Assembly (NCBI GenBank): GCA_964440565.1
Contig: CAYTTB010000001.1
Coordinates: 29,361 to 93,360 of the forward strand
Direction: 5' to 3'
DNA length: 64,000 bases
DNA from: an uncultured Thermoanaerobaculia bacterium
GTDB taxonomy: Bacteria > Acidobacteriota > Thermoanaerobaculia > Thermoanaerobaculales > Sulfomarinibacteraceae
Under the pieces are notes generated by a model, which was not told where the DNA came from, did not search any database, and was given only the letters and a program-made list of their open reading frames with translations. Both the position numbers and the translations under genes were made by a program. Positions 1 through 41,144 of this stretch are shown here, one piece after another; position 1 is the first letter of the stretch, and every line of letters starts with the position of its first letter.

Positions 1-1388
1 GCACCGGCTCGGTGGTGGGCAACCTGTACAAGGGGAGGGTGGTGCGGGTCCTGCCCGGGATGCAGGCGGCGTTCGTGGACATCGGCCTGCCGCGGGACGG
101 GTTCCTCTACGTGCGGGAGGCGGGGGGGATCCTGGAGGACTTCACCGACCTGCTCCCCGAGCACGAGGGCGAACCGCTGGAGCTTCCCCCCGACGCCGCC
201 ATCGACGACCTCCTGCGCGAGGGCCAGGAGGTGCTGGTGCAGGTGGTGAAGGACGGGATCGGCAGCAAGGGCGCCCGCCTCACCACCTACGTGACGCTCC
301 CGGGCCGCTTCCTGGTCTACCTGCCCACGGTCCCCCAGCACGGTGTCTCGCGGCGGATCACCGACCCGGAGGAGCGCGCCCGCCTCAAGGCCATCGTGTC
401 GGCGTTCGCCGACCCCGGCGGGTGGATCGTGCGCACCGCCGGCGAGGGGCTCGACGCCGCCGCCCTCGACGCCGACCGGCGGCAGCTCCTCGCGCAGTGG
501 GCGCAGATCCAGGTCGCGGCGGAGCGGGCCCGGGCTCCGGCGCTGGTCCACCGGGAGCTCAGCCCGGTGCTGCGCACCGTCCGCGATCTGTTCACCGACG
601 AGGTCGCGGAGTGCTGGGTGGACGACGTGGACAGCTACCGCGAGGTGGTGGAGTTCCTGGAGTCCGCGGACCCGGCCCTGGTGCCGCGGGTGAAGCTCTA
701 CCGCCGGCAGGGCGACCTCATGACCGCCTTCGGGATCGAGGAGGAGCTGGAGAAGGCGCTCCGGCCCAGGGTCTGGCTCAAGTCCGGCGGGTACCTGGTG
801 GTCAACCAGACCGAGGCGCTGGTGGCCATCGACGTCAACACCGGCAAGTACCTGGGCTCCACGTCGCTCGAGGACACCGCGCTGAAGATCAACCTGGAGG
901 CGGTGCGGGAGATCGTGCGCCAGCTCAGGCTGCGCGACCTCGGCGGGATCGTGGTGATCGACTTCATCGACATGGAGGACCCCGCCAACCGCCGGCGCGT
1001 GTACGAGGCGCTCCGGGAGGAGCTCCGGAGCGACCCTGCCCGTTCCCAGCTGCTGCCCATGAGCGACATCGGCCTGGTGCAGCTGACGCGCAAGCGGACC
1101 CGGGCGAGCCTCGAGCGGACCCTGTCGCGCGAGTGCCCCTACTGCCACGGCCGCGGCCGGATCAAGTCGCTGGCCACCATCTGCCTCGAGATCCGGCGCG
1201 CGGTGCTCGGGCTCGCCGAGCAGGAGCGGCCGGGCTCGGTCTCGCTCACCGTGCACCCCCAGGTGTCGCACTACCTGCAGGGGCCGATGCGCGAGGTGCT
1301 GCGCGAGCTGGAGGAGGAGCACGGCGTCCAGGTGGTCCTGCGCGAGAACCCCTTGCTGCACCAGGAGGAGTACGAACTGCTGCCGTGA
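1..1388 (+). CDS. rng: Ribonuclease G/E family endoribonuclease, 5' end cut by window edge
   Basis: ORF 12..1388. It has the S1-domain motif VGNLYKGRVVRVLPGMQAAFVDIG and core motifs ALVAIDVNTGK and GGIVVIDFIDM. In E. coli RNase G the first motif lies about 35 aa from the N-terminus, so the true start is probably upstream of the window. Confidence 0.85.
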   Translation, partial: TGSVVGNLYKGRVVRVLPGMQAAFVDIGLPRDGFLYVREAGGILEDFTDLLPEHEGEPLELPPDAAIDDLLREGQEVLVQVVKDGIGSKGARLTTYVTLPGRFLVYLPTVPQHGVSRRITDPEERARLKAIVSAFADPGGWIVRTAGEGLDAAALDADRRQLLAQWAQIQVAAERARAPALVHRELSPVLRTVRDLFTDEVAECWVDDVDSYREVVEFLESADPALVPRVKLYRRQGDLMTAFGIEEELEKALRPRVWLKSGGYLVVNQTEALVAIDVNTGKYLGSTSLEDTALKINLEAVREIVRQLRLRDLGGIVVIDFIDMEDPANRRRVYEALREELRSDPARSQLLPMSDIGLVQLTRKRTRASLERTLSRECPYCHGRGRIKSLATICLEIRRAVLGLAEQERPGSVSLTVHPQVSHYLQGPMREVLRELEEEHGVQVVLRENPLLHQEEYELLP

Positions 1389-1395
1389 ACCGGCC

Positions 1396-2376
1396 TCACA
1401 GGTACGCCACCGCGAACCCCACCTGCGCGGTCATCATCATCAGGTACATGTGGGTCCAGGAGGGATGGTTCTCCACCCGGGCCAGCGCCCCCGGATCCCG
1501 CAGCATGAGGCGGACGGTGTGGGCCCCCCAGGCGGCCAGCAGGAGCCCCAGCGCCACCAGGATCGGCGCGTGGCCCGTGAGGACCGGGTGGGTCGGGTTC
1601 GCCGGGTCGGGCAGCAGCGCTCCGGCCGGCACGAGGAGCCACGGAAGCACGAAGAACGGTGCCATCAGGTGGATCGCGCGGCGCGGCCCGTAGATCAGCG
1701 GCAGCGTCCGGCAGCCCCCGCGGCGGTCGCCGTCCATGTCCGAGAAGTCCTTGGTGGAGGCGGCCCCGAGCAGGAACAGCCCGAAGACGGCCCCGATCCA
1801 CCACGGCTCCGCCGACCACACCGGCGCCACCATGGACCACCCCGCGACCTTGAGCAGGGTGCCGCGGGGGATGGCGATGGTGAGGTTGGCGAGCCACCCG
1901 AGCCGCTTGGTGCGGCCGAAGGTCGGCAGCGAGTACACCAGCGTGAAGGCGAGCCCGGCGAGGTAGATGAAGAAGCAGACGTGCTCGGCCACGGGAGCGG
2001 TGAGCTTGGCCCGGAGCGTGTCGTACGGGTGGGGCACCACGAGCCAGGTGGGCACGAGCGCGAGGGCGTACAGGGCCACCGTCACCCGCCACGCCTGCCG
2101 GAGGCTCACCCGTCCCGAGGGCAGGGGCCGTCCGGGCTTGTTGAGCCGGTCGATCTCGAGGTCCGCGATCTGGTTCAGGATGTTGGAGGCGGCGTTCATC
2201 GCCGAGGCGCAGAGCGACCCCAGCGCCACGGTCCCCACCACCGCCAGCGTCAGCCGCCGCGCGGGGTCGGGGTTGTGCACCGAGCCGAAGGCGCACACCG
2301 CACCCGAGACGATGCCGAGCAGCGGGGGCAGCAACGTGAACGGGCGCGAGAGATCGCGGAGATCCCGCCAGGTCAT
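1396..2376 (-). CDS. UbiA-family polyprenyltransferase (acceptor unknown)
   Basis: Tail of ORF 1396..3600 from the ATG at 2376 (326 aa). It has the Asp-rich motif NQIADLEIDRLNKPGRPLPSG, a second motif KDFSDMDGD, and multiple hydrophobic helices. Its ATG overlaps the upstream stop (ATGA). Confidence 0.8.
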   Translation of the reverse strand: MTWRDLRDLSRPFTLLPPLLGIVSGAVCAFGSVHNPDPARRLTLAVVGTVALGSLCASAMNAASNILNQIADLEIDRLNKPGRPLPSGRVSLRQAWRVTVALYALALVPTWLVVPHPYDTLRAKLTAPVAEHVCFFIYLAGLAFTLVYSLPTFGRTKRLGWLANLTIAIPRGTLLKVAGWSMVAPVWSAEPWWIGAVFGLFLLGAASTKDFSDMDGDRRGGCRTLPLIYGPRRAIHLMAPFFVLPWLLVPAGALLPDPANPTHPVLTGHAPILVALGLLLAAWGAHTVRLMLRDPGALARVENHPSWTHMYLMMMTAQVGFAVAYL

Positions 2377-3653
2377 GGCGGGATGATACCCAGGAGGCGG
2401 GCCAGCGCCAGGGCGAGGAGGCCCCCGACGGCGGTGTCGGCGAGGTTGGTCCCGTGCTTGCTGGCCGGCCCGAGGCGGGGAAGCACCCCCTCGACCAGCA
2501 TCGCCGCGAACCCCGCCGCGGCCACCGCGGCCCCCCCCGCGGGCGGGAGCGCCCCCGTCGCCGCCGCCGCCCCGCCCACCACCGCCGCGCCCACGAGCGC
2601 CGCCACGGTCCCGGGTCCCGACACCGCACCCGGGGTCCCCGGGGGAACCGGATCGAGCCGCGGCAGCGTGTACGCCCGCCGCCCGAGGACCTTCCCCACC
2701 TCCGAGCCCAGCGTGTCGGCGAGGGCGGCGGCGAGGCTCCCGGCCACGAGGAGCGCGCCCACCGCCGAGCCCGGGTAGAGCCCGGCGAGCGCCGCCCCCA
2801 CCCCGGCGAGCGTGCCGTTGGCGGCCACGTGCGCGGCGCCGCGCCGGCACTCGTCCTCGAGCCCCCGCCGCCGCTTCTCGCCCCGGCGGAGCCGGGTGGC
2901 CGCCGTGCCGGTGGCCAGGAACAGCCACAGCAGCAGGTACGCCCGCCAGCCGCCGAGCCCCAGCGTCGCGGTGCCCAGCGCCCAGGCCGCCGCCACCCCG
3001 GCGGGCTCGAGCAGGCGGACCGCGAGCGCCGCGGCCGCGACGGCGGCGTTGATCGCGGCCGCGACACCCACCGCCGCGGCCGTGACGGCGGGAGGGCCGC
3101 CGGCGGCGAGCGCGGGCAGCAGGACCGCCGCACCGACGAGCGGCGGCAGGACGTTGTCGTCCAGCCCGTGCGGGACGGACTCCACCACCGCCGCCACCGC
3201 CACCGCGAGGACCAGCGCCGGCAGCGGCCGCCACCCGGAGACCGTACCGGGCCCGGCCACCCAGGCGAGCAGCGCGATCCCCAGCGCGCCCCCGCCCAGC
3301 GCGTAGCCGGCGAGGCCCTCCCACGTCTTGTCGGGGTTCCAGGGCAGCGGCCGGCGGCCGAGCGACATCCCCGCGATCCCGGCGAGCGCATCGCCCCCGG
3401 CGAGCAGTCCCCACCCGAACGCGGCCACGCCGAGGCCGCCCGCCGCCGGCGGGAGGTGGAACAGGAGCACGAGGGCCAGCACGACCAGCGGGTAGACGAG
3501 CACGCCCCGGTCGCTCGCCCCCTCCCGCGCGCTCGCCAGCCGGTGGCCCACGAGGCGGGGCAGCAGGAGGAGGTTGAAGGCGAAGGCGGCGAGGGCGCAC
3601 GCCGCTGCCTGCGGCCAGGTGAGCCAGCGCAGGAGCAGCGCGAAGGCGGCCAT
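2373..3653 (-). CDS. Polytopic membrane protein: CTP-dependent polyprenol kinase-like domain fused to a DUF92/TMEM19 (VTE6-like) domain
   Basis: Tail of ORF 2373..4577 from the ATG at 3653 (426 aa). The N-terminal ~190 aa carry GGDALAGIAGMSLGRRPLPWNPDKTWEG, a signature of the dolichol kinase / phytol kinase / CdsA superfamily. The C-terminal ~230 aa carry DUF92-like motifs RRGAAHVAANG, ALADTLGSEVG and PGTPGAVSGPGT. Confidence 0.65.
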   Translation of the reverse strand: MAAFALLLRWLTWPQAAACALAAFAFNLLLLPRLVGHRLASAREGASDRGVLVYPLVVLALVLLFHLPPAAGGLGVAAFGWGLLAGGDALAGIAGMSLGRRPLPWNPDKTWEGLAGYALGGGALGIALLAWVAGPGTVSGWRPLPALVLAVAVAAVVESVPHGLDDNVLPPLVGAAVLLPALAAGGPPAVTAAAVGVAAAINAAVAAAALAVRLLEPAGVAAAWALGTATLGLGGWRAYLLLWLFLATGTAATRLRRGEKRRRGLEDECRRGAAHVAANGTLAGVGAALAGLYPGSAVGALLVAGSLAAALADTLGSEVGKVLGRRAYTLPRLDPVPPGTPGAVSGPGTVAALVGAAVVGGAAAATGALPPAGGAAVAAAGFAAMLVEGVLPRLGPASKHGTNLADTAVGGLLALALARLLGIIPP

Positions 3654-3700
3654 CCCCGCGTGGACCGCCTTGCGCGCCCCCTCGCCCGGTGGCAGCGGCC

Positions 3701-4663
3701 TCACGCCCCCCCTCCGGCGACCCGTTCCCGCCACCAGTCGAGGAGGTCGGCGAGCGTGCGTTCGAGCGGGATCCGCGCCGTCCAGCCGGTGGCCTCCCGG
3801 AACCGGGAGGGGTCGCCGTACAGCGCCGGGATGTCGGTGGGACGGAGCCGATCCGCAGCCACCCGCACCTCGAGGCGCACCCGTGCGAGGGCGAGCAGGA
3901 TCTCGAGCACCTCCCGTACCGCGACCGGCCGCCCCGAGCAGACGTTGTACGGCCCGGGGGGGAGGCCGGGATCGAGCGCCGCCAGGTAGGCGTCGGCCAC
4001 GTCGCGCACGTCGGTGAAGTCGCGGACCACGTCGAGCGCGCCCACCTCCACCACCGGCTCCCGGACCCCCGCCTCGGCCCGGGCCACCTGCCGGGCCAGC
4101 GAGGAGGTCACGAACCGGGGGGGGCGTCCCGGCCCGGTGTGGTTGAACGGCCGCATTCGCACCGCGGCGAGCCCGTGGGCGCGCGCGTACTGGGCCGCCA
4201 GCAGGTCCTGCGCCGCCTTGGACACCCCGTACGGCGACACCGGACGGAACGGCGTCGCCTCGGTGGCGGGGAGATCCCCCTCGGGCACCGCACCGTACGC
4301 CTCCCCCGAGCACGCCACCACGAGCCGGGGGGTCAGCCCCTCCGCCCGCAGCGCCTCGAGGAGGTGCACCTGGCCCACCACGTTCACCTCCAGGACCTCC
4401 GCGGGGGCCGTGTAGGAGCCCGCCACGGTCGAGGCGGCGGCCAGGTGGATCACCGCGTCCGGCCGTGCGGCGCGCACCGCCGCCGCCACCGAGGGGCCGT
4501 CGCGGAGGTCCCCCACCACCGTCCGGAGCCGCGGATGGAGCCCCTCGGTGTCGGCGTCCCACCGCACGAGCCCCCACACCTCGGCGTCGGGCCGGCGGGC
4601 GAGGAGGCGTGGGACCAGGTGGCGGGCCACGAACCCCGTCGCGCCGGTGACCAGCACCCTCAC
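3701..4663 (-). CDS. NAD-dependent epimerase/dehydratase (extended SDR)
   Basis: Tail of ORF 3701..6529. The GTG at 4663 gives (M)RVLVTGATGFVARHL, and the YGVSK (YxxxK) motif is present. This GTG overlaps the stop of the rmlD-like gene (GTGA). An alternative ATG lies at 4702. Confidence 0.8.
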   Translation of the reverse strand: MRVLVTGATGFVARHLVPRLLARRPDAEVWGLVRWDADTEGLHPRLRTVVGDLRDGPSVAAAVRAARPDAVIHLAAASTVAGSYTAPAEVLEVNVVGQVHLLEALRAEGLTPRLVVACSGEAYGAVPEGDLPATEATPFRPVSPYGVSKAAQDLLAAQYARAHGLAAVRMRPFNHTGPGRPPRFVTSSLARQVARAEAGVREPVVEVGALDVVRDFTDVRDVADAYLAALDPGLPPGPYNVCSGRPVAVREVLEILLALARVRLEVRVAADRLRPTDIPALYGDPSRFREATGWTARIPLERTLADLLDWWRERVAGGGA

Positions 4664-5505
4664 CGCGCGGCCTCCAGGTAGCGGCGCAGCGCGTCCCGCC
4701 ATGGCGGCATCCGGCGGCCCAGGATCGCCGCGAGGCGCGAGGTGTCCAGCGCGGAGCTCGCCGGGCGTGGCGCCGGCCGGTGGAGCTGGGCGGTGGTGAT
4801 GGGCCGCACCGGGACCCCCGCGCCCAGCTCCTCGACGATGGCCTCCGCGAACCCGTGCCAGGTGGTGAAACCCTCGTTCACCGCGTGCACCACCCCCCGC
4901 GCTCCGGCGGCGACCAGGTCCAGGATCGCCTCGGCGAGGTCGGCGGCGTAGGTGGGGCTGCCCCGCTGGTCCGCCACCACCCGGAGCTCCCCGACGCCCC
5001 GCGCGATCTGGCGGCGGATCGCCTCCACGAAGTTGCGCCCCCCGACGCCGTACAGCCACGCGGTGCGTACCACGAGGTGGTCGGGGCAGGCGGCGGCGCG
5101 CCGCTCCCCCTCGAGCTTGCTGCGCCCGTACGCTCCCAGCGGCGCCGGGGGATCCTCCTCGCGGTACGGGCGGGAGAGCTCCCCGGAGAACACGTAGTCG
5201 GTGGAGAGCTGCACCAGCAGCGCGCCGGCCTCGGTGCAGGCCGCCGCCAGATGCCCCACCGCGATGCCGTTGACCTCGAGCGCCCGTCCGGGCTCGGCCT
5301 CGGCGCCGTCCACGTCGGTGTAGGCGGCGCAGTTGATCACCGCCTCCGGCCGGACCGTCCGGACCGCCGCGTGCACCGCCGCCGGGTCCGTGATGTCGAG
5401 CTCCGGCAGGTCCGGCGCCGTCACCGGGATCCCGCGCGAGGCGGCGGCGACCTGGAGCGCACGCCCCAGCTGCCCGCGGCCACCGGTCACCAGGAGCCCC
5501 GGCAT
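4660..5505 (-). CDS. rmlD: dTDP-4-dehydrorhamnose reductase family protein (RmlD-like)
   Basis: ORF 4660..5505, 281 aa. It has the Rossmann motif LLVTGGRGQLG plus STDYVFSG and YGRSKLEGE. No rmlA/B/C genes are nearby. Confidence 0.8.
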   Translation of the reverse strand: MPGLLVTGGRGQLGRALQVAAASRGIPVTAPDLPELDITDPAAVHAAVRTVRPEAVINCAAYTDVDGAEAEPGRALEVNGIAVGHLAAACTEAGALLVQLSTDYVFSGELSRPYREEDPPAPLGAYGRSKLEGERRAAACPDHLVVRTAWLYGVGGRNFVEAIRRQIARGVGELRVVADQRGSPTYAADLAEAILDLVAAGARGVVHAVNEGFTTWHGFAEAIVEELGAGVPVRPITTAQLHRPAPRPASSALDTSRLAAILGRRMPPWRDALRRYLEAAR

Positions 5506-5514
5506 GGGCGCATG

Positions 5515-6291
5515 CTAGCAGACGGAGCGCCGGGCGCGGGCGAGGGCGTGAGGGTAGGGCGTCCACCGCACGTCCCGGGGCTCCCATCCGCCCTCGGCCA
5601 GCTCCGCTCGGACCTCCTCCTCGGTGAAGGTGTGGATGTAGTGGGGCAGGAGGAGGTCGCCCACCTCGACGGGTGGACGGCCCAGGAGCGGCCGGAGCGG
5701 GCCGCTCACTCCCCTGGCGACGGCCCAGAACCAGCGGGGGGCGGCCCGTCCCACGAAGGACAGCAGCAGCGGGGCGGCGGGAGGGACGGCCTCGCGCAGG
5801 CGGCGGAGGAGCCGGACCCGCGTGGCCCGTCCCCGCACCAGGCTGTACATCCCCCACCCCAGGATCACCCCCCCGGGCCGGCCGGGGAACGCGGGGCAGC
5901 TGTCCGGCTCCATGGGCAGGAGGCGGAGCCCGGGGTCGGCCTCCCGGAGGATCTCGCGCCCCCGCGCGCGAAGGGCGGGGTTGCACTCGAACCCGGTGAC
6001 CCGGTACCCCATGGCGTGGAGGCCGAGGAGCTCCCGGCCGGCGCCGGCTCCCAGGACCGCGATCTCGCAGCCCGGTGGAAAGAGCTCCTCCACCGCGGCG
6101 CGCTCCCAGGGGTAGAGGCCGGACCGGTTGTATCCGGGGTCCGTGTAGGTGCGGGACCGAGCGTGGTGGGAGCTGTCGAGCGTGCGAAGGCTGGCGGGCG
6201 ACAGTCCCCCCAGGAACAGGCCGGTGTGGACGGCGCGCAGCAACCAGTCGAGGCGCTCGATCCACCTCCACGACAGACGGCAGAGAACCAC
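5515..6291 (-). CDS. Class I SAM-dependent methyltransferase
   Basis: Tail of ORF 5515..6480 with SAM motif I IAVLGAGAGRE. There is no nearby in-frame ATG, so the GTG at 6291 was chosen. The start is uncertain. Confidence 0.55.
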   Translation of the reverse strand: MVLCRLSWRWIERLDWLLRAVHTGLFLGGLSPASLRTLDSSHHARSRTYTDPGYNRSGLYPWERAAVEELFPPGCEIAVLGAGAGRELLGLHAMGYRVTGFECNPALRARGREILREADPGLRLLPMEPDSCPAFPGRPGGVILGWGMYSLVRGRATRVRLLRRLREAVPPAAPLLLSFVGRAAPRWFWAVARGVSGPLRPLLGRPPVEVGDLLLPHYIHTFTEEEVRAELAEGGWEPRDVRWTPYPHALARARRSVC

Positions 6292-6578
6292 GCCCGGCGT
6301 GACGCGCTCCGGATCCGCAGTGGCATCGCGCGCCCCGCGTCCCGCGTGCCTGTCGGTTCTCACCTCCGGGCCTGCCAACGGTACCCCGGGCCCAGGATAG
6401 GGATCCCGGCCGGGCCGCACAACGGCGCGGCGTGCGGGCGTTCCCGATACCTCCGCGCGGCGGTCCCGGCGGCCCGGCACCCGCGGCCCCGGGCCGGCGC
6501 AACCCCGGGGCGCGGGGTGCGTAGCTCACGCAGGGACGGGCGGGGGGTCGTCACCCGCAGGAGCGGAGGATCCGAGCG

Positions 6579-6923
6579 ATGGAGCGTGAACTGGGGATCG
6601 CCTACCTCGCCGTCGCCGTGCTGATCGTCGTGGCGGCGGTACCGCTGCTGCTCGGGTGGGTCCGCAGGAACTCCTGGTACGGGATCCGCATCCCCGCGGC
6701 GTTCGAGTCCGAGGCGAGCTGGCTGCGGGTGAACCGGTACGGGGCGAGATGCCTCCTGGCGTGGGCGGCCGCGCTGGCCCTGCTGGGAGCGGTGTGCCTC
6801 CTGCTGCCCACGCGGCTCGAGGGCCTGGCCCTCCTGGGCGTGGTGCTCGCCCCCCTGGCGACGCTGTTCCCGGTGATCGTCGCCATTCTCCGCTACGGCG
6901 ACCGGACCGCCTCGCGCCCGTGA
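6579..6923 (+). CDS. SdpI/YhfL-family small membrane protein
   Basis: ORF 6579..6923, 114 aa with about four hydrophobic helices. RRNSWYGIRIPAAFESEASW resembles the SdpI-family signature. GGAGCGGAGG lies upstream. Confidence 0.6.
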   Translation: MERELGIAYLAVAVLIVVAAVPLLLGWVRRNSWYGIRIPAAFESEASWLRVNRYGARCLLAWAAALALLGAVCLLLPTRLEGLALLGVVLAPLATLFPVIVAILRYGDRTASRP

Positions 6924-6990
6924 CCGGTCCGGCCCGCCGGGTGGAATGTCCCGCCGCCCGGGCGTATTCTTCTGGCCGCGGAGGTGCGCG

Positions 6991-7644
6991 ATGCGACCGG
7001 TGGAGCCAGCGGAGCGGGGCGGGGGCGAGGGGATCGAGAGCCGCAACGGGAACCTGGTGGCGCGCGAGGACGAGGCCCGCATCGTGGCCCGCATCGCGGG
7101 GCACATGGCGGCGATCATGCGGGAGCTCAACCTCGATCTCGACGACCCCAACTTCCGGGGCACGCCGGAGCGGGTGGCCAGGATGTACGTGGAGCTCTTC
7201 CACGGGATCTTCGAGGGCGCCGAGCCCGAGGTGACGGTGTTCCCCAACGAGGAGGGGTACCATCACATGGTCATCGAGCGGGAGATCCCGTTCTACTCCA
7301 TGTGCGCGCACCACTTCGTCCCGTTCTACGGGCACGCCCACATCGCCTACATCCCCTCGGCCCGGATCGTGGGGCTGTCCAAGCTCGCCCGGATCCTGGA
7401 GTTCTATGCGCGCCGGCCGCAGCTGCAGGAGCGGCTCACGGAGCAGGTGGCCGAGTTCCTCTGGCGACGGCTCGAGCCGCTGGGAGTGATGGTGGTGATC
7501 GAGGCCCGCCACCTGTGCGTGGAGATGCGCGGGGTCAAGAAGCCGGGCGCGCTCACCACCACATCGGCGCTCCGTGGCTGCTTCTCGGACCGCAAGGTGC
7601 GCGAGGAGTTCCTCGCCCTGGTGGGCCGTCAGGTCGCCTGGTGA
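6991..7644 (+). CDS. folE: GTP cyclohydrolase I
   Basis: The in-frame ATG at 6991 has GGAGGT 5 nt upstream (the ORF track starts at 6946). Motifs FYSMCAHHFVPFYG, RPQLQERLT and EARHLCVEMRGV are present. Confidence 0.9.
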   Translation: MRPVEPAERGGGEGIESRNGNLVAREDEARIVARIAGHMAAIMRELNLDLDDPNFRGTPERVARMYVELFHGIFEGAEPEVTVFPNEEGYHHMVIEREIPFYSMCAHHFVPFYGHAHIAYIPSARIVGLSKLARILEFYARRPQLQERLTEQVAEFLWRRLEPLGVMVVIEARHLCVEMRGVKKPGALTTTSALRGCFSDRKVREEFLALVGRQVAW

Positions 7645-8192: not shown

Positions 8193-9116
8193 TCACGGCA
8201 GGTGGACCGCCATCCCCTTGCGAACCCGCGAGGCGTCGCCGCGGACCACCGAGCAGATGGACAGCTTCTCCTTGACGCGGTCCACGCGCACCCGGGCAAC
8301 CTCGTTGACCTCCTCGTCCAGCACCTCGCCGGTGTCCGGGTCGCGGATCACCTCGCGCGTGCCCACCACGAACTCCATTCCGGGCTGGACGCCCTCGCGC
8401 GCGCCGCGGTTGACGTACACCTTGCCGTTACGCACCAGCGCCACGGTTCCGGTCCACGGGATGCTGGGGAGCTGCTGGATGATGAAGTCCACGGCCTTGG
8501 CGCACGCCTCCTGCACGGCGAGGCCGAGGTTGTCGTTCTTGTGCCCGCCGAACGCGGCGCCCCATCCCGAGGTGTCGTAGCCGAGGCGCAGGCCGCGCTT
8601 CTTGGCGGTGCCCACCACGTTGGTGGAGGCGAGCACCTGGCCGGTGGTGGAGTCGATGACGTAGATGGTGGCGTTCACCTCCGCCTTCTTGCCGCCGCCC
8701 CCGATGCGGAACCCCTTGATCCGGATCCCGCCCGAGCCGCCGCCGGTGTCGGCCTGGACGTGGGTGATGGCCCCCTTGACGAGCAGCTGCGCCGGCGTCA
8801 TCTGGCCGGTCACCGGCGCCTTGGCGCCGCCCGCCGTCCGCCCGGAGGCGGCGAAGTCCTGCTCGGCCATCGCCTCCGCGCGCATGTCCTTCTCGCCCAG
8901 CACGATGAACCTGCCCGACTGGTTCAGCATGTCGGTGAGGACCGTGCTCCACGCGTCGCCGATGTCCCAGTAGCCGGCCCAGTTCGCCCGGTTCTCGAAC
9001 TTGGTGACCATGATGGAGTAGCGCAGCCCTCCCGCCGCCTCCTGGGTCGCCTGCTGCGCGAGAGCGGGCGCGGCGGCGAGGGCCGCCGCCACCGCGAGGA
9101 TCGCCACACGTCGCAT
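8193..9116 (-). CDS. CsgG-family outer-membrane channel-like protein (no lipobox)
   Basis: Tail of ORF 8193..9629 from the ATG at 9116 (307 aa), preceded by AAGGGAGGA. The signal peptide ends ALAQQ and has no Cys. The core resembles the CsgG family (YSIMVTKFENRANWAGYWDIGDAW...LNQSGRFIVLGEKDM). Confidence 0.75.
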   Translation of the reverse strand: MRRVAILAVAAALAAAPALAQQATQEAAGGLRYSIMVTKFENRANWAGYWDIGDAWSTVLTDMLNQSGRFIVLGEKDMRAEAMAEQDFAASGRTAGGAKAPVTGQMTPAQLLVKGAITHVQADTGGGSGGIRIKGFRIGGGGKKAEVNATIYVIDSTTGQVLASTNVVGTAKKRGLRLGYDTSGWGAAFGGHKNDNLGLAVQEACAKAVDFIIQQLPSIPWTGTVALVRNGKVYVNRGAREGVQPGMEFVVGTREVIRDPDTGEVLDEEVNEVARVRVDRVKEKLSICSVVRGDASRVRKGMAVHLP

Positions 9117-9701: not shown

Positions 9702-11969
<2,268 letters not shown>

Positions 11970-17144: not shown

Positions 17145-19179
17145 GTGACCTCCCGCCGTGGTACAACGGTGCCCGTGCACGGGAGTGCGGACGGCGCCGG
17201 GGCCTCGCCGCGCCGGTGGCCGTGGGTGGTGGGCGTCGTGCTGCTCGCCCTCGCCCTGCGGCTGTGCGGTGTGGGGGCGCTGTCGCCGTGGCTCGACGAG
17301 GTGTTCCAGCTCGAGCGCGTCGCGGCGCCCATCGCCGGGCTCTGGCGGGGGAGCACGGCGTTCCCCGATCACCCACCGGGCTCGGCGCTGCTGATGCGGG
17401 CCCTCGCGACGCTGGGCGCCGGCGAGGCCCAGCTGCGCGTCGCCTCGGTGGCGGCCGCCGTGGCGGCGCTTCCCTTGCTCATGATCTGGGTGGAGGCGCG
17501 TTTCGACCGGCGCGTGGCCGCCCTCGTGGGCGTCCTGGGTGCGGTCTCGCCCTACCACCTGCGCTACTCGCAGGAGCTGCGACCGTACCCGTACCTGCTG
17601 CTCGCCGCCGCGGCGACGCTGGTGCTCGCGGACCGCCTGCTTCGGGGGCGGGGCGGCAGATGGACCGTTCCGGGCCTCGCGGCGGCCTTCGCCGGCGGCC
17701 TCTGGACCCACGACACCTTCCCTGTGGTCGTGGTACCCATCGCGGCCGCGGCGTGTGCGCGCCGAGGGGAGCTGGCACCCGGGTGGCCGCGCCGGCTGGC
17801 GGCGAGCGGGGCGCTCGCCCTCGCGCTCTACCTCCCGCTGCTGCCCCGCCTCGTGCGGCAGGCAGCCGCCGCGTCGTCGCCCACGGCCGAGACGTGGGGT
17901 TGGTGGTTTCTCTCCCGACGCTGGGCTTTCCTGACCGTGGCGGGCCGCGAGGGGATCCCGTCCGGCTGGGGTGCCGCCGCCTTCGCGGCAGCGGCGGCGC
18001 TCGGCGCGGGCGTGGCGGCGGCCCGGTGGCGACGGGGGGGGGCTCGAGGTGCTCACAGGCCTCCTCGCCGGGATCGCCGGGGTGGAGAGCGTCTTCCACT
18101 TCGTCTTCCGGCGCTGGACGGCGGGCCGCTACGACATCGTGGGCTGGCCGTTCCTGGTGATCCTCGTGGCGCTCGGCGTGGACGCCCTCTGGCGCCGGGC
18201 GCGCGCCGCGGGGGCGCTGGCCGCGACGGCACTGGTGACCTCGAGCCTCGTGGGCGTCGTCGCCTACTGGAACGAAGGGCGCCCGCGGTGGGACCGGATG
18301 GCGGAGGCAGTGAGGGCGGTCCGGCGCGCGGGCGAGCCGGTGCTCGCGGAGAGCCTGTTCTGCGAGCGACCGCTCTCCCGCCTGCTCGCCGGCGACGGCG
18401 TGGAGGTGATCCGGCTCGACGGCGACCTCGGGCGCCTGTGGCGGGTGTGGCCGCGGGACCGCTCCGCACTCCTGGTGCGGTGTGGGGATCCCCAGTCGGC
18501 GCCCCTGCGCCGCGTCGCGGCCCGGCTGCCGCGGATCGTGGCGCACGCCCCGCATGGGTGGCTGTACCGGCTGCCGCCGCGCTCGTGGGCGCGGCGTCGC
18601 TCGGATGGCTCGATCGGCGTGGCCGGCGCCTCCCCCGCCGGCGCGTGGCCGGAGCCGAGCCTTTCGCTCCTCCCGGTCCGGGTGGCGTGCCCCGAGGCGT
18701 TCTGCCTCGGCCGGTGGCTCGCCCGACCCCGCCCGAGCCCGGTCGAGGTTCCCGCGAGGCTCGAGTTCGACGGTCCCGAGACGCGACGCGCCCTGCTGGG
18801 GGCCTGGGGCGGGGACGAGCGGACGCGCGACGGCACCACCTTCGCCTGGGCGACCTCGCTGGAGGTCGGCGTGGCGTTCCACATCGCCCGGCCGCGTCCG
18901 CTGCACCTCGCCCTCAGACTGTGGCCGTACGCCGGGACGCTCCCCGGCCAGGCGGTGCGGGGCCTGGTGGGCGGCCACGAGCTGGGATGGGTGCGCCTCG
19001 GAGCAGGAGCGCACGAGCTGGGCGCGCCCATCCCGGCGGGCGCGCTGCGGCCGGGCACCAACCTGCTCGTTCTCCAGTTCGCGCGGGCGGTGGCCCCGGC
19101 CGAGGTGCGTCCGGGATCGCGCGACCGCCGGCCGCTCGCCGCCGCCCTCGACTGGATCGAGATCGCCCCCGCGGAGTGA
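17145..19179 (+). pseudogene. GT-C fold membrane glycosyltransferase (family 39 / ArnT-PMT-like) split by a frameshift at a G9 tract
   Basis: The N-terminal polytopic part reads in the frame of ORF 17145 (LDEVFQLE loop motif, many TM helices) up to about 18033. The sensible sequence continues in the frame of ORF 17971 (LEVLTGLLAGIAGVESVFHFVF... to DRRPLAAALDWIEIAPAE*). Each frame becomes Arg/Gly/Pro junk on the other side of the tract. Confidence 0.7.
18034..18042 (+). repeat. G9 homopolymer at the frameshift point
   Basis: The sequence reads gac ggggggggg ctc. An 8-G version would join the two frames into one ORF of about 677 aa. Confidence 0.9.
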
Positions 19180-20722: not shown

Positions 20723-21922
20723 TCAGTCGAGCTGGTTCCTCAGGATCGCCGGGACCTCGTACTCCTCCTTGGGCGCTCCGGTGCCGTGGATCCCGTACCA
20801 CGGGTCGCTGGGCTCCAGGAACGGGCTGCGCGGCCGCGCGCCCTCCTCGGCCGGCCGCTCGGCCTCGGCCTCGGCGGTGCGCCGCTCGGTCGCCTCGCCA
20901 CCGAAGCCGGTGGCGATCACCGTCACCCGGAACTCGCCCTCGAGGTCGGGGTCCACCACCGCGCCGAACAGGACGATGGCGTCGCGGTCGGCGCTCTCGG
21001 TGATGATCTCCGCCGCCTCGTTGACCTCGGTGAGCGTCATGTCGGCGCCGCCGGTGAGGTTGATGAGGATCCCGCGCGCGCCGGCGATGGACGTCTCCTC
21101 CAGCAGCGGCGAGGCGATCGCCTGCTGGGCCGCCTCCACCGCCCGGTGCTCGCCGGAGGCCGCGCCCACCCCCATGATGGCGTGGCCCATGTCCTTCATC
21201 ACCGTGCGCACGTCGGCGAAGTCGCGGTTGATCAGCCCGGGCTTGGTGATGATGTCGGCGATCCCCTGCACCGCCTGACGGAGCACGTCGTCGGCGATGC
21301 GGAGCGCGTCGGTGAACGACGTGGAGCGGTCCACGAACTTGAGCAGCCGCTCGTTGGGGATCGTGATCAGGGTGTCCACGTGCGCCTCGAGCTGGGCGAT
21401 CCCCTCCTCCGCCACCCGGCGGCGGCGCGTCCCCTCGAAGGGGAACGGCTTGGTCACCACCGCCACCGTGAGGGCGTCGGCCTGCGAGGCGATCTGGGCG
21501 ATCACCGGCGCCGCCCCGGTGCCGGTGCCCCCGCCCATGCCGCAGGTGACGAACACCATGTCGGCGCCCGTGACCAGCTCGTGCAGCCGGTCGGTGTCCT
21601 CCACCGCCGCCCGGCGGCCGATGTCGGGGTCGGCGCCGGCGCCGAGGCCTCGCGTCACCTCCGGGCCCAGCTGCACCTTCACCGGCGCCGTGCACTGCTC
21701 GAGCGCCTGGGCGTCGGTGTTGACGGCGATGAACTCCACCCCCGCCACCCCCGCCGCCATCATCCGGTTGATCGAGTTGCAGCCGCCGCCCCCCACGCCG
21801 ATCACCTTGATCACCGCCGGCGAGGACGCCTCCTCCAGCTGGATCCGCGGGCCCTCGCCAGGCGCCGGGGAGCCCCGCTCCCCCCGTGGGTCGTCGTGCC
21901 TCGAGTCGAGCCTGATGTTCAC
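20723..21922 (-). CDS. ftsZ: Cell division protein FtsZ
   Basis: Tail of ORF 20723..23044. The GTG at 21922 follows GGGAGGTGG and overlaps the ftsA stop (GTGA). Motifs [17 protein letters not shown] and [12 protein letters not shown] are present. Length 399 aa. Confidence 0.92.
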
Positions 21923-23145
21923 GGTCCACCTCCCATCTCGAACAGCTCTCCCAGGGCCTGCCGGAGCCATCCCAGCGGCCCGCTCCCCCGTCTCCGGTCT
22001 CCCTGCGACCGCCGCCACGCGGCCTGCAGGCGCACCAGCCCCACGGCCACCGCCCACTCGGGTCCGGCGACCGGCTCCACCTCGCCCTCGATCCCGCGCG
22101 GCGCGCCGAGCCGGGCGCGCGCCCCGAAGATCGCCTCCGCCAGCTCGCCGAGCCCGGGCAGCAGCGCGCCGCCGCCGGTGAGCACCACGCCCGCGCGGGC
22201 GACGCCGTCCAGCTGCTCCTCGGCGAGCTGCCGGTGCACGGCCACGAGCACCTCCTTGGCCCGTGCCGCCAGCGTCTCGGTCACCACCTGGAGCGGCACG
22301 ACCCGCTGCCCCTCGCCGCCCAGCGCCGGCACCTCCACCGCCGTCCCGTCGGCTCCGGCGAGGCCGTGGCGGCGCTTCAGCTCCTCGGCGGCGTGGCTCG
22401 AGGTGCGCAGGATCACCGCGAGGTCGTTGGTGAAGCTGCGCCCCCCCACCGGGAAGCAGCCGGTGGCCACCACCGCCTCCTCGGCGTAGAGCGCCCACTC
22501 GGTGCCGCCGTGGCCGATGTCCACCAGCAGGCAGCCGAGCTCGCGCTCGTCGGGGGTGAGCGCGGCCGCGGCGGCGGCGAGCGGCTCGAAGTAGAGGCGC
22601 TCCGCCACGATCCCGGCCTGGTTCACCGCCTTGAGCACGCTCTCGGCATGGGTGCGGTGGGCGTAGAGCACGTGGGCGTGGGCGTCGAGGCGGGTGGCGG
22701 GCATCCCCACCGGCCGCCTCACCCCGGGCTGGCCGTCGAGCACGAACTCCCTCGGGATCACGTCGAGGACGGTGTAGTCCGAGGGCTGGGCGAACCGGGT
22801 GCACCGCTCCAGGGCCCGGTCGCGGTCGTCGTCGCTGACCAGCCCGCGCGCCCCGGTCACGGGCACCGAGGAGCGGGCGTTGAGGCCGCGCACCGCCGGG
22901 CCGCCGAGCCCCACGACCGCGCGCTCCACCGGGGCCGACGCCATCGCCTCCGCCTCCTCGGCCGCGAGCCGCACGGCCTCCGTCACCGCCTCGAGGTCCG
23001 CCACGATCCCCTTGGGCGCGCCGGCGTGGCGGGCACGGCCGCACCCCAGGACCACCGTCCGGTGATCGTCCGCGGCCTCCGCGACCACCACCGAGACCGA
23101 GGCGGCGCCCACGTCGATCCCCACCAGCGGACCGGGGTCCTTCAT
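21919..23145 (-). CDS. ftsA: Cell division protein FtsA
   Basis: Tail of ORF 21919..23238 from the ATG at 23145. Actin-fold motifs [15 protein letters not shown] and [12 protein letters not shown] are present. The ATG overlaps the ftsQ stop (ATGA). Confidence 0.9.
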
Positions 23146-23846
23146 CCCGTCGCCCCCCGCCGCACCACCACCCGGTCGTCCCGGGTCAGGTCGAGGAACG
23201 CGGCCGCGGCCAGCTCCGGCCGGGCACCGGCGAGCCACCGCTCGGAGGCGGTGGGCTCGGCGGCCAGGCGTACCTCGCGCCCACCGCGGGGCCCGGTGCG
23301 GGCCACCAGGACGTCCGGGAGGGTCCGGCGCAGCGACCGCACGGGGCCGAGGCCCAGCGCCCGGAGCCGCTCCACCGCGGCCAGCGCCGCGCGCAGCGCC
23401 CGGGGCTCGGCCGGGAAGCCCAGGAGCACCGGCGGACGTGGACCCGGAAGCCGCCCGCAGAGCGCGCCGGTGGCGCTCACGCCGTGCCAGCCGCGGCCCA
23501 CGGGAACGGAGGCCACCGCGCGCGCCGTCTCCACCGTCACCTCGAGCCTGCCGTCCAGCTCACGACGCACCGCCGCGCGCGCCACCCCGGGGAGCCGCTC
23601 CAGCCGCTCCCGCACCCCCTCCGGATCGAGCAGCAGCACGGGCTCGCCCGCGAGCGCCTCGAGGCGGGCCCGCGCGCAGGGCGGGAGGGCCTCCCCGCCC
23701 CGGACCGAGACCGTCCCCACGCGCCACGCCGGGGCGGCGGCGAGCGTCGCGGCGGCGGCCAGCGGGAGGAGCAGCCGCCGGACCCGCACGCGCCGCCGGC
23801 GCGGCCGCCTGAGGTGCTCGGGGAACGGGGGGCGGAGCGCGCTCAC
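23142..23846 (-). CDS. ftsQ: Cell division protein FtsQ (TM plus POTRA)
   Basis: Tail of ORF 23142..25223. The GTG at 23846 overlaps the murC stop (GTGA). An Arg-rich N-terminus and a TM helix ([17 protein letters not shown]) precede a POTRA-like region. Position in the cluster supports the call. Confidence 0.75.
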
Positions 23847-25216
23847 GATCCCTCCCCGGCGAGCCACAGCTCGCCCACCCGATCCACGGGGCCGGCCCCG
23901 AGGGTCAGCACCACGTCGCCCGGAGCGACGGTGCCCTCGAGCCTCCGCGCGGCGTCGCGGTAGTCGGACGCCAGCTCCGCCGCGGCGCCGCCGGCGCGGA
24001 GCGGCTCCAGCACCAGCCGGCTGTCCACGCCCGGGCGCGGGGCCTCGCGCGCGGGGTAGACGGGCAGCAGGATCACCCGGTCGGCCGCGGCCAGCGCCCG
24101 CGCGAACCCCGCGGCGAACGCCCGGGTGCGCGAGTAGAGGTGCGGCTCGAACACCGCCACCACCCGCCGGCCGGGCCAGCGCTGACGGGCCGCGGCCAGC
24201 GTGGCGGCGATCTCGGTGGGGTGGTGGGCGTAGTCGTCGGCCACGAGCACACCCCCCCGCTCCCCCCGGACCTCGAGCCGCCGGCCCACGCCCGGGAAGC
24301 GGGCGAGCGCCGCCGCCGCCTCGACGAAGGGGATCTCGAGCTCGAGAGCCACCGCCACGGCGGCGAGCGCGTTCCGCAGGTTGTGCCCGCCCGCGAGGGG
24401 GATCCGGAGGCGGCCCAGCTCCTTCCCGCCCGCCACCACGGTGGCGGCGGTCCCCTCCGGCGCCGCGGCGACCTCCACCGCCCGCAGCCACGCCCCCTCC
24501 CCGAGCCCGTAGCCGAGCGTCCGGCGTCCGCACGCCGCGGCCACGCGCACGGCGCCCGGATCGTCGGCGCAGGCGATCACCGCCCCCCAGAACGGCACCC
24601 GGCCAGCCAGCTCGGCGAACGCCGCCTCCAGCGCCTCGCGGGTGCCGTACACCTCGAGGTGCTCGGGCTCCACGTTGGTCACCACGCACCAGCACGGGTG
24701 GAGGGCGAGGAAGGCGCGCGCGTACTCGTCCGCCTCGCACACCAGGTGCGGGCCGCGGCCGGCGCGGGCGTGGCCGGGCAGGAACGCCGGCCGCCCGCCC
24801 ACCACCGCGGTGGGATCGAGCCCGGCCTCCTGGAGCACCCAGGTGATCATGGAGGCGGTGGTGGTCTTGCCGTGGGTGCCCGCCACCGCGATCCCCAGTC
24901 GGCCGCGCTCCACCTCGGCGAGGAGCTCGGCCCGTCCCACCACGGGCAGCCCGAGGCGGCGCGCGGCCTGGAGCTCCGGAAGGTCCTCGGGGACGGCGGC
25001 GGTGGCCACCACGGCGTCCACGTCCCCGACGTGGGCGGGGTCGTGGCCCAGCAGGATCCCGGCCCCGAGCTCCACCAGCCGCTCCGTCCTCGGGCTCGCC
25101 TCGAGCTCGCACCCGGTCACCTCCAGGCCCGCCTCGAGCGCCAGCTCGGCGAGGGCGCACATCCCGGCCCCGCCGATGCCGAGGAAGTGCAGCCGCCGGA
25201 TGCGCCCGAGCCTCAC
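23843..25216 (-). CDS. murC: UDP-N-acetylmuramate--L-alanine ligase
   Basis: Tail of ORF 23843..26335. The GTG at 25216 follows GGGAGGAGGTGG and overlaps the murG stop. Motifs HFLGIGGAGM and GIAVAGTHGKTTT are present. Confidence 0.9.
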   Translation of the reverse strand: MRLGRIRRLHFLGIGGAGMCALAELALEAGLEVTGCELEASPRTERLVELGAGILLGHDPAHVGDVDAVVATAAVPEDLPELQAARRLGLPVVGRAELLAEVERGRLGIAVAGTHGKTTTASMITWVLQEAGLDPTAVVGGRPAFLPGHARAGRGPHLVCEADEYARAFLALHPCWCVVTNVEPEHLEVYGTREALEAAFAELAGRVPFWGAVIACADDPGAVRVAAACGRRTLGYGLGEGAWLRAVEVAAAPEGTAATVVAGGKELGRLRIPLAGGHNLRNALAAVAVALELEIPFVEAAAALARFPGVGRRLEVRGERGGVLVADDYAHHPTEIAATLAAARQRWPGRRVVAVFEPHLYSRTRAFAAGFARALAAADRVILLPVYPAREAPRPGVDSRLVLEPLRAGGAAAELASDYRDAARRLEGTVAPGDVVLTLGAGPVDRVGELWLAGEGS

Positions 25217-34287: not shown

Positions 34288-34622
34288 GGGGCACCTCCCG
34301 TCGCGGGTGGCGTCGCCACCGCCGCGGGCGGCTCGAGCCCCAGCCGCCGCGCCCGCTCGGCCAGACGCGCGGGATCGCGCCGCCGCTCGAGCTCGAGCTC
34401 CAGCGCCCGCCGGCGCCGCTCGAGCGCCTCCACCCGCCGCTCGAGCTCGAGCACCCGGTAGCGGGTCTCCAGCGCCTCCAGGCGGGGCCAGCCCACGAGC
34501 AGCAGGACCCCGAGGAGCAGGCCCGCGAGCAGCAGCAGCGCGAGGAGGACGCGGGGCCAGCGGCGGTCCGGGGCCACCACCACGTGGTCGTTGCGCGGCA
34601 GCAGGACGAGCGGGCGGCTCAC
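34284..34622 (-). CDS. ftsL: FtsL-like division protein (TM plus coiled coil)
   Basis: Tail of ORF 34284..35114. The GTG at 34622 overlaps the rsmH stop. The TM helix VLLALLLLAGLLLGVLLLVGW is followed by a heptad-like Leu/Glu/Arg region. The call rests on position and architecture only. Confidence 0.6.
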   Translation of the reverse strand: MSRPLVLLPRNDHVVVAPDRRWPRVLLALLLLAGLLLGVLLLVGWPRLEALETRYRVLELERRVEALERRRRALELELERRRDPARLAERARRLGLEPPAAVATPPATGGAP

Positions 34623-39645: not shown

Positions 39646-39692
39646 GACTGAACCCTCCTCCCGTCAACGCTAGCACCGGCTCCGGGGAACGG

Positions 39693-41074: not shown

Positions 41075-41079
41075 CGGTT

Positions 41080-41104
41080 CATTGTACGGCGCCGGGGTAC
41101 AATG
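41080..41104. promoter_or_regulatory. Palindrome CATTGTAC-N9-GTACAATG carrying two divergent TACAAT -10 boxes
   Basis: Lies in the 70-bp gap between ruvX (minus) and the thiolase gene (plus). The minus-strand TACAAT ends 6 nt before the ruvX GTG. The plus-strand TACAAT is followed by an 8-bp hairpin (41107-41125) and GGAGG. Confidence 0.35.
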
Positions 41105-41144
41105 CCCGCGCGGCCAAGCCGCGCGCACTCCCTGGAGGTGAAGG

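Follow-up and report, generated by a model that had tools for sequence, protein, structure and literature searches.

A candidate two-step polyprenol kinase fusion linked to an orphan UbiA prenyltransferase in a cell-envelope operon of Acidobacteriota

In the genome of an uncultured Thermoanaerobaculia bacterium (phylum Acidobacteriota; assembly GCA_964440565.1), the gene for a membrane protein that joins two kinase-like domains overlaps the gene for a UbiA-superfamily prenyltransferase, which raises the question of whether the first protein supplies the second with its prenyl donor, and for the synthesis of which product. The window analysed is a stretch of 64,000 nucleotides of contig CAYTTB010000001.1 (positions 29,361 to 93,360), with a G+C content of 72-79%; coordinates below are those of the window. 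Analysis of the two genes, their relatives and their surroundings suggests that the fusion is a two-step kinase that provides the UbiA enzyme with its donor within a cell-envelope operon, a reading to which we assign a probability of about 0.5. The genes and domains on which it is based are the following; both open reading frames (ORFs) lie on the minus strand, where the preliminary description of this DNA had placed them.

2373 to 3704, minus strand: fusion gene encoding 443 amino acids, with a GTG start codon at 3704 and a TGA stop codon at 2373-2375
3090 to 3704, minus strand: N-terminal Sec59/VTE5-like domain of the fusion (approximately residues 1-205), predicted from PF01148, a CdsA-like fold and motifs
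2376 to 3071, minus strand: DUF92 domain of the fusion (PF01940, COG1836, the VTE6 family), PF01940 at 125 bits
1396 to 2376, minus strand: UbiA-superfamily intramembrane prenyltransferase of 326 amino acids, PF01040 at 117 bits
2373 to 2376, minus strand: stop-start overlap ATGA of the fusion gene and the UbiA gene, read from the sequence as ccgccATGAcc
3701 to 3704, minus strand: stop-start overlap GTGA of the preceding gene, for an Rmd-like short-chain dehydrogenase/reductase (SDR), and the fusion gene, read from the sequence and in agreement with the gene calls of the related locus L011

The fused membrane protein

The fusion had been read as 426 amino acids from an ATG at 3653, but its likeliest true start is the GTG at 3704, 51 nt further upstream, for three reasons: this codon forms the GTGA overlap with the stop codon of the preceding gene; database gene calls are also 443 amino acids long (the protein P0001, to which the product is 100% identical, and the call in L011); and the 17 regained residues include E8, R11, K12 and H15, which are invariant in an alignment of 15 sequences and at least 90% conserved in one of 20 sequences. 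The shorter reading therefore missed an R-K-x-x-H clamp, discussed below. The three motifs first quoted for the protein, GGDALAGIAGMSLGRRPLPWNPDKTWEG, RRGAAHVAANG and ALADTLGSEVG, are all read in its translation, and the ATGA overlap of fusion stop and UbiA start is likewise present at the expected place, the TGA and the ATG having three bases in common; the identical 4-nt overlap joins fusion and UbiA genes in L011, L014 and L018.

The CTP-binding signature of dolichol kinases is D-x2-A-x3-G-x3-G-x8-9-K-(K/T)-x-E-G. The N-terminal domain of the fusion matches it as D105-ALA-GIAG-MSLG-RRPLPWNPD-K126-T-W-E-G130, with D105, G112, K126 and G130 invariant across 20 relatives. Also invariant or nearly so (15-20 relatives) are E175 and D182-D183-N184, which form an ExxxxxxDDN block that we take to resemble dolichol and phytol kinases rather than CdsA, with its HGG-x-x-DR-x-D. 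The Arg-Lys-x-x-His clamp, R11-K12-A-V-H15, is seen only when the GTG at 3704 is used as start; an Arg-Lys-His 'charged clamp' (R29, K30, H33) has been described for PfPolK of the malaria parasite, a biochemically tested prenol kinase (PMC10849223). By likeness to that published description, the motif supports, without proving, a kinase rather than a cytidylyltransferase.

The match of Pfam family PF01148 (CTP_transf_1) to the 443-residue protein is borderline, with 24.6 bits (E 2.6e-5) for a cut-off of 24, and falls to 23.8 bits, below the cut-off, for the 426-residue reading; since the family also takes in CdsA, this match alone is no sign of a kinase. An AlphaFold model of the domain (15 relatives; predicted local distance difference test (pLDDT) 89, predicted template-modelling score (pTM) 0.86) has seven helices, and its top three Foldseek matches in the PDB are chains of TmCdsA (4q2g: probability 0.99, E 0.086, template-modelling (TM) score 0.43), a fold match that appears weak yet specific. 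Thermotoga CdsA is a CDP-diacylglycerol synthase. Judged by its modelled fold and CTP-type motif, the N-terminal domain belongs to the CdsA/dolichol kinase/phytol kinase superfamily. A word-indexed search with this domain alone returned 13 matches, mostly partial fusions or short fragments, and no named stand-alone relative.

The C-terminal domain is matched by PF01940 with 125 bits (E 4e-36; cut-off 27.5), and DUF92 is detected in all 20 of 20 relatives, whose alignment leaves D330-T331, E335, G356-T357, E405 and N420 invariant in this half. Together with PF01040 on the UbiA protein, all three Pfam families named in the preliminary description, PF01148 (borderline) included, are detected on the two proteins. 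When the halves of the fusion are compared with each other by hhalign, the match is weak (E 0.0024, probability 12%) and pairs D105 with D330, E175 with E405 and N184 with N420. This pairing fits the published homology of pfam01940 to pfam01148 (HHpred 97.6%), in which the metal-binding aspartates are kept (Makarova et al. 2015, PMC5898192). On the evidence of these alignments, the 443-residue membrane protein consists of two homologous phosphotransfer domains of the CdsA superfamily arranged in tandem.

The two halves, first described as joined in one protein, occur as a single protein in all relatives recovered. Among 5.8 billion proteins searched, 330 matched the fusion at E<=1e-5; of the top 120, nearly all have 425-490 amino acids and a query coverage of 80-100% (the exceptions being P0027, a 285-residue partial sequence, and P0061, with 667 residues), and wherever the source gives a name among these 120, it is that of an Acidobacteriota lineage (Acidobacteria/Acidobacteriota, Thermoanaerobaculia or Thermoanaerobaculaceae). 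Genome loci of relatives extend the range to Vicinamibacteria and Holophagae. When a profile of the N-terminal domain alone was searched exhaustively, 329 clusters (50% identity) matched at E<1e-30 and 1457 did so at E<1e-10; the best 150 clusters are mostly 430-480 amino acids long, the length of the fusion.

Some apparent departures from this architecture were rejected. The 'triple fusions' of an SDR with the kinase (P0061, P0311) would have been Rosetta-stone evidence for a functional link, but parts of both sequences are garbled and out of frame, and their contigs are rich in indels. The 'split' forms (P0242 in L020, P0245 in L021), whose halves are adjacent, in order and shortened, are regarded as frameshift artefacts from the same type of assembly. 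Frame errors in several public long-read metagenome contigs (L019, L020, L021; P0061, P0311) create false fusions and false splits in this cluster, and counts of domain architectures taken from such contigs would mislead.

The UbiA prenyltransferase and the predicted pathway

The UbiA protein matches PF01040 with 117 bits (E 1e-33; cut-off 34), and its AlphaFold model (pLDDT 84) has a helical, multi-span fold for which all top Foldseek matches are of the UbiA fold, from the archaeal enzyme DGGGPS as the best (6m31, 2.5e-9) to the mycobacterial phosphoribosyltransferase Rv3806c as the weakest (1.4e-4). Among PDB sequences, MjDGGGPS ranks first (6.7e-15) and chlorophyll synthase second (2.9e-13), followed by ApUbiA and AfUbiA; Rv3806c is absent from these matches at E<=1. 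Within the family alignment N68, D72xxxD76 and K209-D-F-x-D-x-x-G-D217 (D210xxD213xxxD217) are invariant. The residues that mutagenesis found essential in MjDGGGPS (N62, D66xxxD70 and D180/D183/D187; review PMC9385802) are all kept in these positions, and the three catalytic motifs are intact.

None of the curated families claims the protein. The best NCBIfam models are PRK12884 (94 bits), ChlG (93), BchG (86), DGGGPS (69) and HPT (66), all far under their cut-offs. For DGGGPS, the models NF009521/NF009522/NF009512 give 69/56/34 bits against cut-offs of 296/353/278, and for ChlG/BchG, NF005742/TIGR01476/TIGR02056 give 93/86/50 bits against 313/212/436. The quinone models score 27 bits against 420-430 (MqnP), 26 against 275 (ubiA_proteo), 23.5 against 277 (MenA) and 56 against 181 (ubiA_other), and the DPPR synthase model 18 against 207. 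Since the models for MenA, UbiA, MqnP, heme O synthase and DPPR synthase reach only 18-32 bits, the protein lies outside these well-understood clades. By these scores it represents an orphan subfamily nearest DGGGPS and ChlG and under every curated family cut-off.

This subfamily is more conserved than the fusion that accompanies it: among close relatives UbiA identity is 80-86%, and that of their fusion proteins only 60-65%. Mean column identity of the UbiA protein across Thermoanaerobaculia and Vicinamibacteria is 72%, which indicates strong constraint on the sequence. TIAIPRGxLLKVAGW and ENHPSWxHMY are family-specific invariant blocks, and most members carry a PHPYDT...KLTAP insertion. According to Hemmi et al. 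(cited in PMC9385802), it is the acceptor and not the donor by which UbiA enzymes group; as this clade fits no known family, its acceptor is probably not among the known ones.

The rank of DGGGPS as first match both by sequence and by fold would fit an archaeal-type or hybrid ether lipid, made by a UbiA protein that is a true DGGGPS-type enzyme and transfers geranylgeranyl diphosphate (GGPP) provided by the fusion onto prenyl- or alkyl/acyl-glycerol phosphate; this is a special case of the donor-supply reading with a named acceptor. Motifs 1 and 3 are nearly identical to those of MjDGGGPS, the Joint Genome Institute (JGI) pipeline labels several members as geranylgeranylglycerol-phosphate geranylgeranyltransferase, and the literature discusses bacterial homologues of DGGGPS (PMC7852524, PMC6431249). 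We nevertheless regard such a lipid as quite unlikely: the DGGGPS-type NCBIfam models give 56-94 bits against cut-offs of 269-353, the motif-2 region (YS.P...K..GW..N) is nearer ChlG/HPT than DGGGPS, neither the window nor 21 related loci showed a gene for GGGPS, glycerol-1-phosphate (G1P) dehydrogenase or CarS, and the operon is a setting of rhamnose genes and LptD rather than of phospholipid synthesis.

Menaquinone offers another possible role. The window encodes a VitK2_biosynth protein (MqnA/MqnD-type) and MqnC (TIGR03699, 479 bits against a cut-off of 428) at 59649-61510 (plus strand), overlapping by 4 nt, and the organism therefore uses the futalosine route to menaquinone; an MqnP-type prenyltransferase was not found in the window. 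The UbiA protein, conserved like a housekeeping enzyme and labelled in many cases '4-hydroxybenzoate polyprenyltransferase' by the JGI pipeline, might then be the prenyltransferase of that route in this lineage, with the fusion unrelated to it. This is highly improbable in view of the MqnP score and the equally poor scores of the MenA, UbiA and ubiA_other models, of the 57 kb that separate the mqn genes from the UbiA gene, and of the conserved partners of the latter, which are the kinase fusion and sugar genes.

In the pathway that we favour, the N-terminal Sec59/VTE5-type domain would convert a free allylic polyprenol into polyprenyl phosphate; the DUF92/VTE6-type domain at the C terminus would add a second phosphate to give polyprenyl diphosphate; and the UbiA enzyme, whose Mg2+/diphosphate-binding Asp motifs are intact, would take the diphosphate as donor and transfer its prenyl group to an acceptor. 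The nearest relatives of the UbiA protein, archaeal DGGGP synthase and chlorophyll synthase, prenylate on oxygen. The overlap of the fusion stop with the UbiA start implies that the two genes are probably translated together. In plants and cyanobacteria, VTE5 and VTE6 are two distinct enzymes that catalyse successive steps (PMC9782597; PMC10849223), in agreement with what had been said of these homologues at the outset, and the fusion of homologues of enzymes that are sequential elsewhere is classical evidence for the same pathway. Domain identities, conserved catalytic-type residues, the fusion itself, gene order, overlaps and the placement of the UbiA protein are direct observations. The module for polyprenol salvage and prenyl transfer proposed in the preliminary description thus stands in its architecture and linkage, its kinase activities and prenyl-donor role being predictions: the former are drawn by analogy with VTE5/FOLK/PfPolK and with VTE6, and chain length, acceptor and cellular role are likewise suggested by comparison.

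The operon and the carrier-lipid alternative

The fusion and UbiA genes are preceded by three further ORFs.

5515 to 6291, minus strand: first ORF of the operon, 258 amino acids or longer, weakly methyltransferase-like
4660 to 5505, minus strand: RmlD, dTDP-4-dehydrorhamnose reductase, TIGR01214 at 311.5 bits against a cut-off of 224
3701 to 4663, minus strand: Rmd-like extended SDR of the GDP-4-keto-6-deoxy-D-mannose reductase family, PF16363 at 220 bits

The two genes were at first called a self-contained module, but they are the last two of an operon that also encodes RmlD and an Rmd-type reductase and is knit together by 4-nt overlaps. Its order on the minus strand is the ORF 5515-6291, RmlD, Rmd-like SDR, fusion and UbiA; a gap of 9 nt separates the first ORF from RmlD, a GTGA overlap at 4660-4663 joins RmlD to the SDR gene, and a convergent RNase G gene lies 7 nt from the operon end. 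A promoter and terminator scan of positions 1-7200 gave no signal inside the operon, the scan being uninformative at 75% GC. The first ORF has no family match in Pfam or NCBIfam as read from 5515-6291 and, in a longer reading (5515-6480), matches only weakly (Methyltransf_25, E 0.046; daptide methyltransferase, E 1e-4); in the closest relatives (L001-L005) its position is held by a second SDR ('Epim2'). The Rmd-like SDR is under all NCBIfam cut-offs and has as PDB relatives the GDP-6-deoxy-D-lyxo-4-hexulose reductase 2pk3 (E 9e-69, full length) and 6x3b (3.5e-56).

Gene order was compared in 19 loci including the window, 18 of them informative for what follows the fusion (L005 is cut too short to tell). 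The linkage of fusion and UbiA recurs in at least two acidobacterial classes, as the preliminary description would lead one to expect: UbiA lies directly 3' of the fusion in 13 of the 18 (the window, L001, L003, L004, L007, L008, L009, L010, L014, L015, L018, L019 and L021). In 15 of the 19 loci the gene immediately 5' of the fusion encodes an SDR or RmlD. LptD directly precedes the cluster in L007, L008, L009, L010, L014, L017, L018 and L021, an arrangement found in Vicinamibacteria and several Thermoanaerobaculia; in some loci RmlA (TIGR01208, 454 bits against 320) and RmlB (TIGR01181, 430 against 365) stand between LptD and the cluster, and L018 has LptD, fusion and UbiA alone, joined by 4-nt overlaps.

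The LptD gene of the window is at 42340-44451 (plus strand), 40 kb from the module, with GltX next after it. Its upstream neighbours from 37726-42326 (a TonB_C/protein-kinase fusion, YceG and a thiolase) match those in L017 and L018. Since LptD keeps its usual upstream neighbours without the module behind it, the kinase-UbiA module looks to have been relocated in this lineage, to its present place beside RNase G.

The SDR that precedes the fusion is not Rmd-like in some relatives (6342-7424 in L014; 6943-7947 in L007). That of L014 is nearest the HpnA 'hopanoid-associated sugar epimerase' (190 bits, below the cut-off) and also SDRs of the thioester-reductase and NmrA types, so that such an SDR might act on a lipid rather than on a sugar nucleotide. 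In two loci, which belong to different classes, the module adjoins a PMT_2/ArnT-like GT-C gene; this gene follows UbiA in L010 (8043-9554) and precedes the fusion in L006 (4042-5532). This GT-C family uses polyprenyl-phosphate-sugar donors.

The distal place of the fusion and UbiA genes in an envelope operon, with RmlD and an Rmd-like SDR in the window and LptD, RmlA and RmlB elsewhere, suggests that the product is most likely a lipid or glycolipid of the envelope that bears an isoprenoid, and not a quinone or pigment. Several observations weigh against the supply of UbiA by a two-step kinase. On the side of the enzymes, the PF01148 match lies at threshold and reaches E<=0.01 in just 6 of 20 relatives; PDB sequence and profile searches with the fusion and with its N-terminal domain gave no match; and the preference for a kinase over a cytidylyltransferase, supported but not proven, is drawn from motifs and from literature about other proteins. 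VTE6 is the single characterised member of DUF92, and TIGR00297 scores 96 bits, under its cut-off of 205.85; the DUF92 half of the fusion thus belongs to the Pfam family but is no equivalog of the stand-alone proteins from archaea and cyanobacteria that TIGR00297 describes. On the side of the substrates, a free allylic polyprenol pool in a non-phototroph finds no explanation, and no prenyl-diphosphate synthase, GGGPS, CarS or cytoplasmic glycosyltransferase was found in any cluster, nor does the cluster encode an obvious acceptor-forming enzyme. Finally, 5 of the 18 informative loci (L002, L006, L016, L017, L020) have no adjacent UbiA gene, and three of the five (L002, L016, L017) still keep the upstream SDR or RmlD gene, so that the kinase may serve the sugar or carrier-lipid side instead.

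The strongest rival explanation follows from this last point. The fusion would serve the pool of polyprenyl phosphate (undecaprenyl-type) that carries rhamnose-containing lipopolysaccharide (LPS), O-antigen, rhamnan or another polysaccharide, much as Sec59 does in eukaryotes; the DUF92 half would act on another chain length or at another step of the carrier cycle, and the UbiA protein would be an operon neighbour with no donor made by the fusion. The fusion is accompanied by the sugar genes and LptD at least as regularly as by UbiA, given the SDR or RmlD gene upstream in 15 of 19 loci, the LptD gene in eight and the sugar-gene neighbours that the fusion retains where UbiA is missing; RmlA, RmlB and RmlD pass their equivalog cut-offs, the SDR of the window is Rmd-like, and the GT-C gene adjoins the module in L010 and L006. 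Further, the sole conserved context of archaeal DUF92 genes is uppS, and the family has been discussed under glycosylation and lipid metabolism (PMC5898192). We consider this explanation doubtful all the same, since a second phosphorylation to the diphosphate serves no purpose in carrier recycling, stop-start overlaps bind fusion and UbiA in several lineages, and the adjacency of UbiA persists without sugar genes in L018; moreover, housekeeping envelope clusters can keep their gene order without a common pathway.

The same sugar genes admit a role like that of DPPR synthase, in which the UbiA-fold enzyme would move a sugar from phosphoribosyl pyrophosphate (PRPP) or a nucleoside diphosphate (NDP)-6-deoxyhexose onto the polyprenyl phosphate formed by the N-terminal kinase domain. 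The resulting polyprenyl-phospho-sugar would be a donor for GT-C enzymes in the periplasm, after the manner of the decaprenyl-phospho-arabinose pathway of mycobacteria. UbiA is the only transferase among the NDP-sugar enzymes and the polyprenol kinase, as the cluster has neither a GT-2 nor a GT-4 gene; L010 and L006 have an adjacent GT-C gene; and Rv3806c shows the UbiA fold to be capable of such chemistry (PMC10994848). Such a role is nonetheless very unlikely, because Rv3806c is the weakest UbiA-fold neighbour by structure (1.4e-4, compared with 2.5e-9 for DGGGPS), no PDB sequence match to it was found at E<=1, the NCBIfam DPPR synthase model gives 18 bits, and the DUF92 half would be left without a role. 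Like the ether-lipid and menaquinone roles, sugar transfer is conceivable and disfavoured, the tests that were run counting against each of the three.

If the two-step kinase fusion does feed the UbiA enzyme, its product can be imagined more specifically. Acidobacteriota may make a previously unrecognised isoprenoid outer-membrane lipid, for which a polyprenol would be converted to its diphosphate and UbiA would then O-prenylate an acceptor that is derived from a 6-deoxyhexose, related to LPS or a glycerol-phosphate lipid, with a hybrid ether lipid resulting in the last case. This proposal is speculative and, as worded, unlikely to be correct; if true, it would explain why the operon of LptD, rml, rmd, kinase and UbiA genes is kept in more than one class.

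Related systems, the rest of the window and significance

The closest functional parallel is the VTE5-VTE6 salvage route by which plants and cyanobacteria supply HPT and ChlG: the same two families, with a borderline PF01148 match for the first, occur in the same biochemical order, followed by a UbiA enzyme of the ChlG/HPT/DGGGPS part of the tree. The acidobacterial system differs in that the kinases form one polypeptide, the host is a non-phototroph whose scanned genes include none for chlorophyll or tocopherol, the UbiA protein is below the ChlG and HPT cut-offs, the neighbours are rhamnose-nucleotide genes and LptD, and the activity is predicted. The Sec59-like plus DUF92 architecture is not new, having been reported for Methanosarcina in 2015: archaeal arCOG02245 contains such fusions, for example Mbar_A3310 of Methanosarcina barkeri, and a kinase of isoprenoid pathways was predicted (Makarova et al. 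2015, PMC5898192). Compared by published description, these archaeal proteins share the architecture and keep the aspartates in both halves; they neighbour uppS, whereas the acidobacterial fusion is linked to UbiA and to LPS and rhamnose genes and is the only form recovered across Acidobacteriota.

For the UbiA protein, the nearest PDB sequences are MjDGGGPS (6M31), which is also the nearest fold, and chlorophyll synthase (9SAU), and the motifs N-x3-D-x3-D and K-D-F-x-D-M-x-G-D are common to it and both of these enzymes; its identity to MjDGGGPS is 19% by Foldseek, and its family has extra invariant blocks and, in most members, the PHPYDT...KLTAP insertion. The mycobacterial decaprenyl-phospho-arabinose route (Rv3806c, DprE1/DprE2, GT-C) likewise combines a UbiA-fold protein with SDR-type sugar enzymes in an envelope context, and in some acidobacterial loci a GT-C gene is near. 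In contrast to that route, the acidobacterial SDRs are of the NDP-6-deoxyhexose type (RmlB, RmlD, Rmd) and not DprE2-like, no DprE1-like flavoenzyme is present, and Rv3806c is the most distant UbiA-fold match to the acidobacterial UbiA protein. A literature search, which did not reach the VTE6 and PlantSEED papers, found no paper on the bacterial fusion, its near-universal occurrence in fused form in Acidobacteriota, its coupling to the orphan UbiA or the LptD-rml-rmd context.

The statement that no photosynthesis or tocopherol genes are in view holds for the ORFs of the window that were scanned: apart from MqnC and the VitK2_biosynth protein, these contain no photosynthesis, tocopherol, GGGPS or other isoprenoid genes, the scan covering all but a dozen or so mostly short ORFs. 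The scanned genes are otherwise of the envelope and of housekeeping, among them a division and cell wall (dcw) cluster, Ddl, NamZ, glycolysis genes, ClpXP, Lon and Rho. The dcw cluster is complete and tightly packed at 20723-35563 (minus strand), with many junctions formed by 4-nt overlaps; a Pfam scan, applied to all but three ORFs between MraY and RsmH, identified FtsZ, FtsA, FtsQ, MurC, MurG, FtsW, MurD, MraY, a penicillin-binding protein (PBP) and RsmH (MraW methylase family). The window also encodes a 639-residue protein with a protein-kinase-like domain and a C-terminal TonB_C domain (37726-39645, minus strand), an architecture that recurs in L018; a protein of the MaeB type, in which a malic enzyme is joined with a domain like phosphate acetyltransferase (9702-11969, minus strand); and a CsgG-family lipoprotein with an FlgT_C-like tail (8193-9107, minus strand). 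Two long ORFs with high GC3 (G+C at third codon positions) have no Pfam match: 61537-63471 (plus strand, 644 amino acids), which has no NCBIfam match either, and 17971-19179 (plus strand, 402 amino acids).

Should the fusion merely recycle a carrier lipid, it would belong to ordinary envelope housekeeping. As a two-step kinase, this widespread two-domain bacterial protein would be a compact candidate for testing in one construct the kind of two-step route that reviews still term a 'missing pathway', and it might serve as a tool to channel prenols into engineered routes to terpenoids or quinones. The UbiA subfamily linked to it is large and very conserved, and its product could reveal a new lipid, possibly related to the outer membrane, in a dominant soil phylum.

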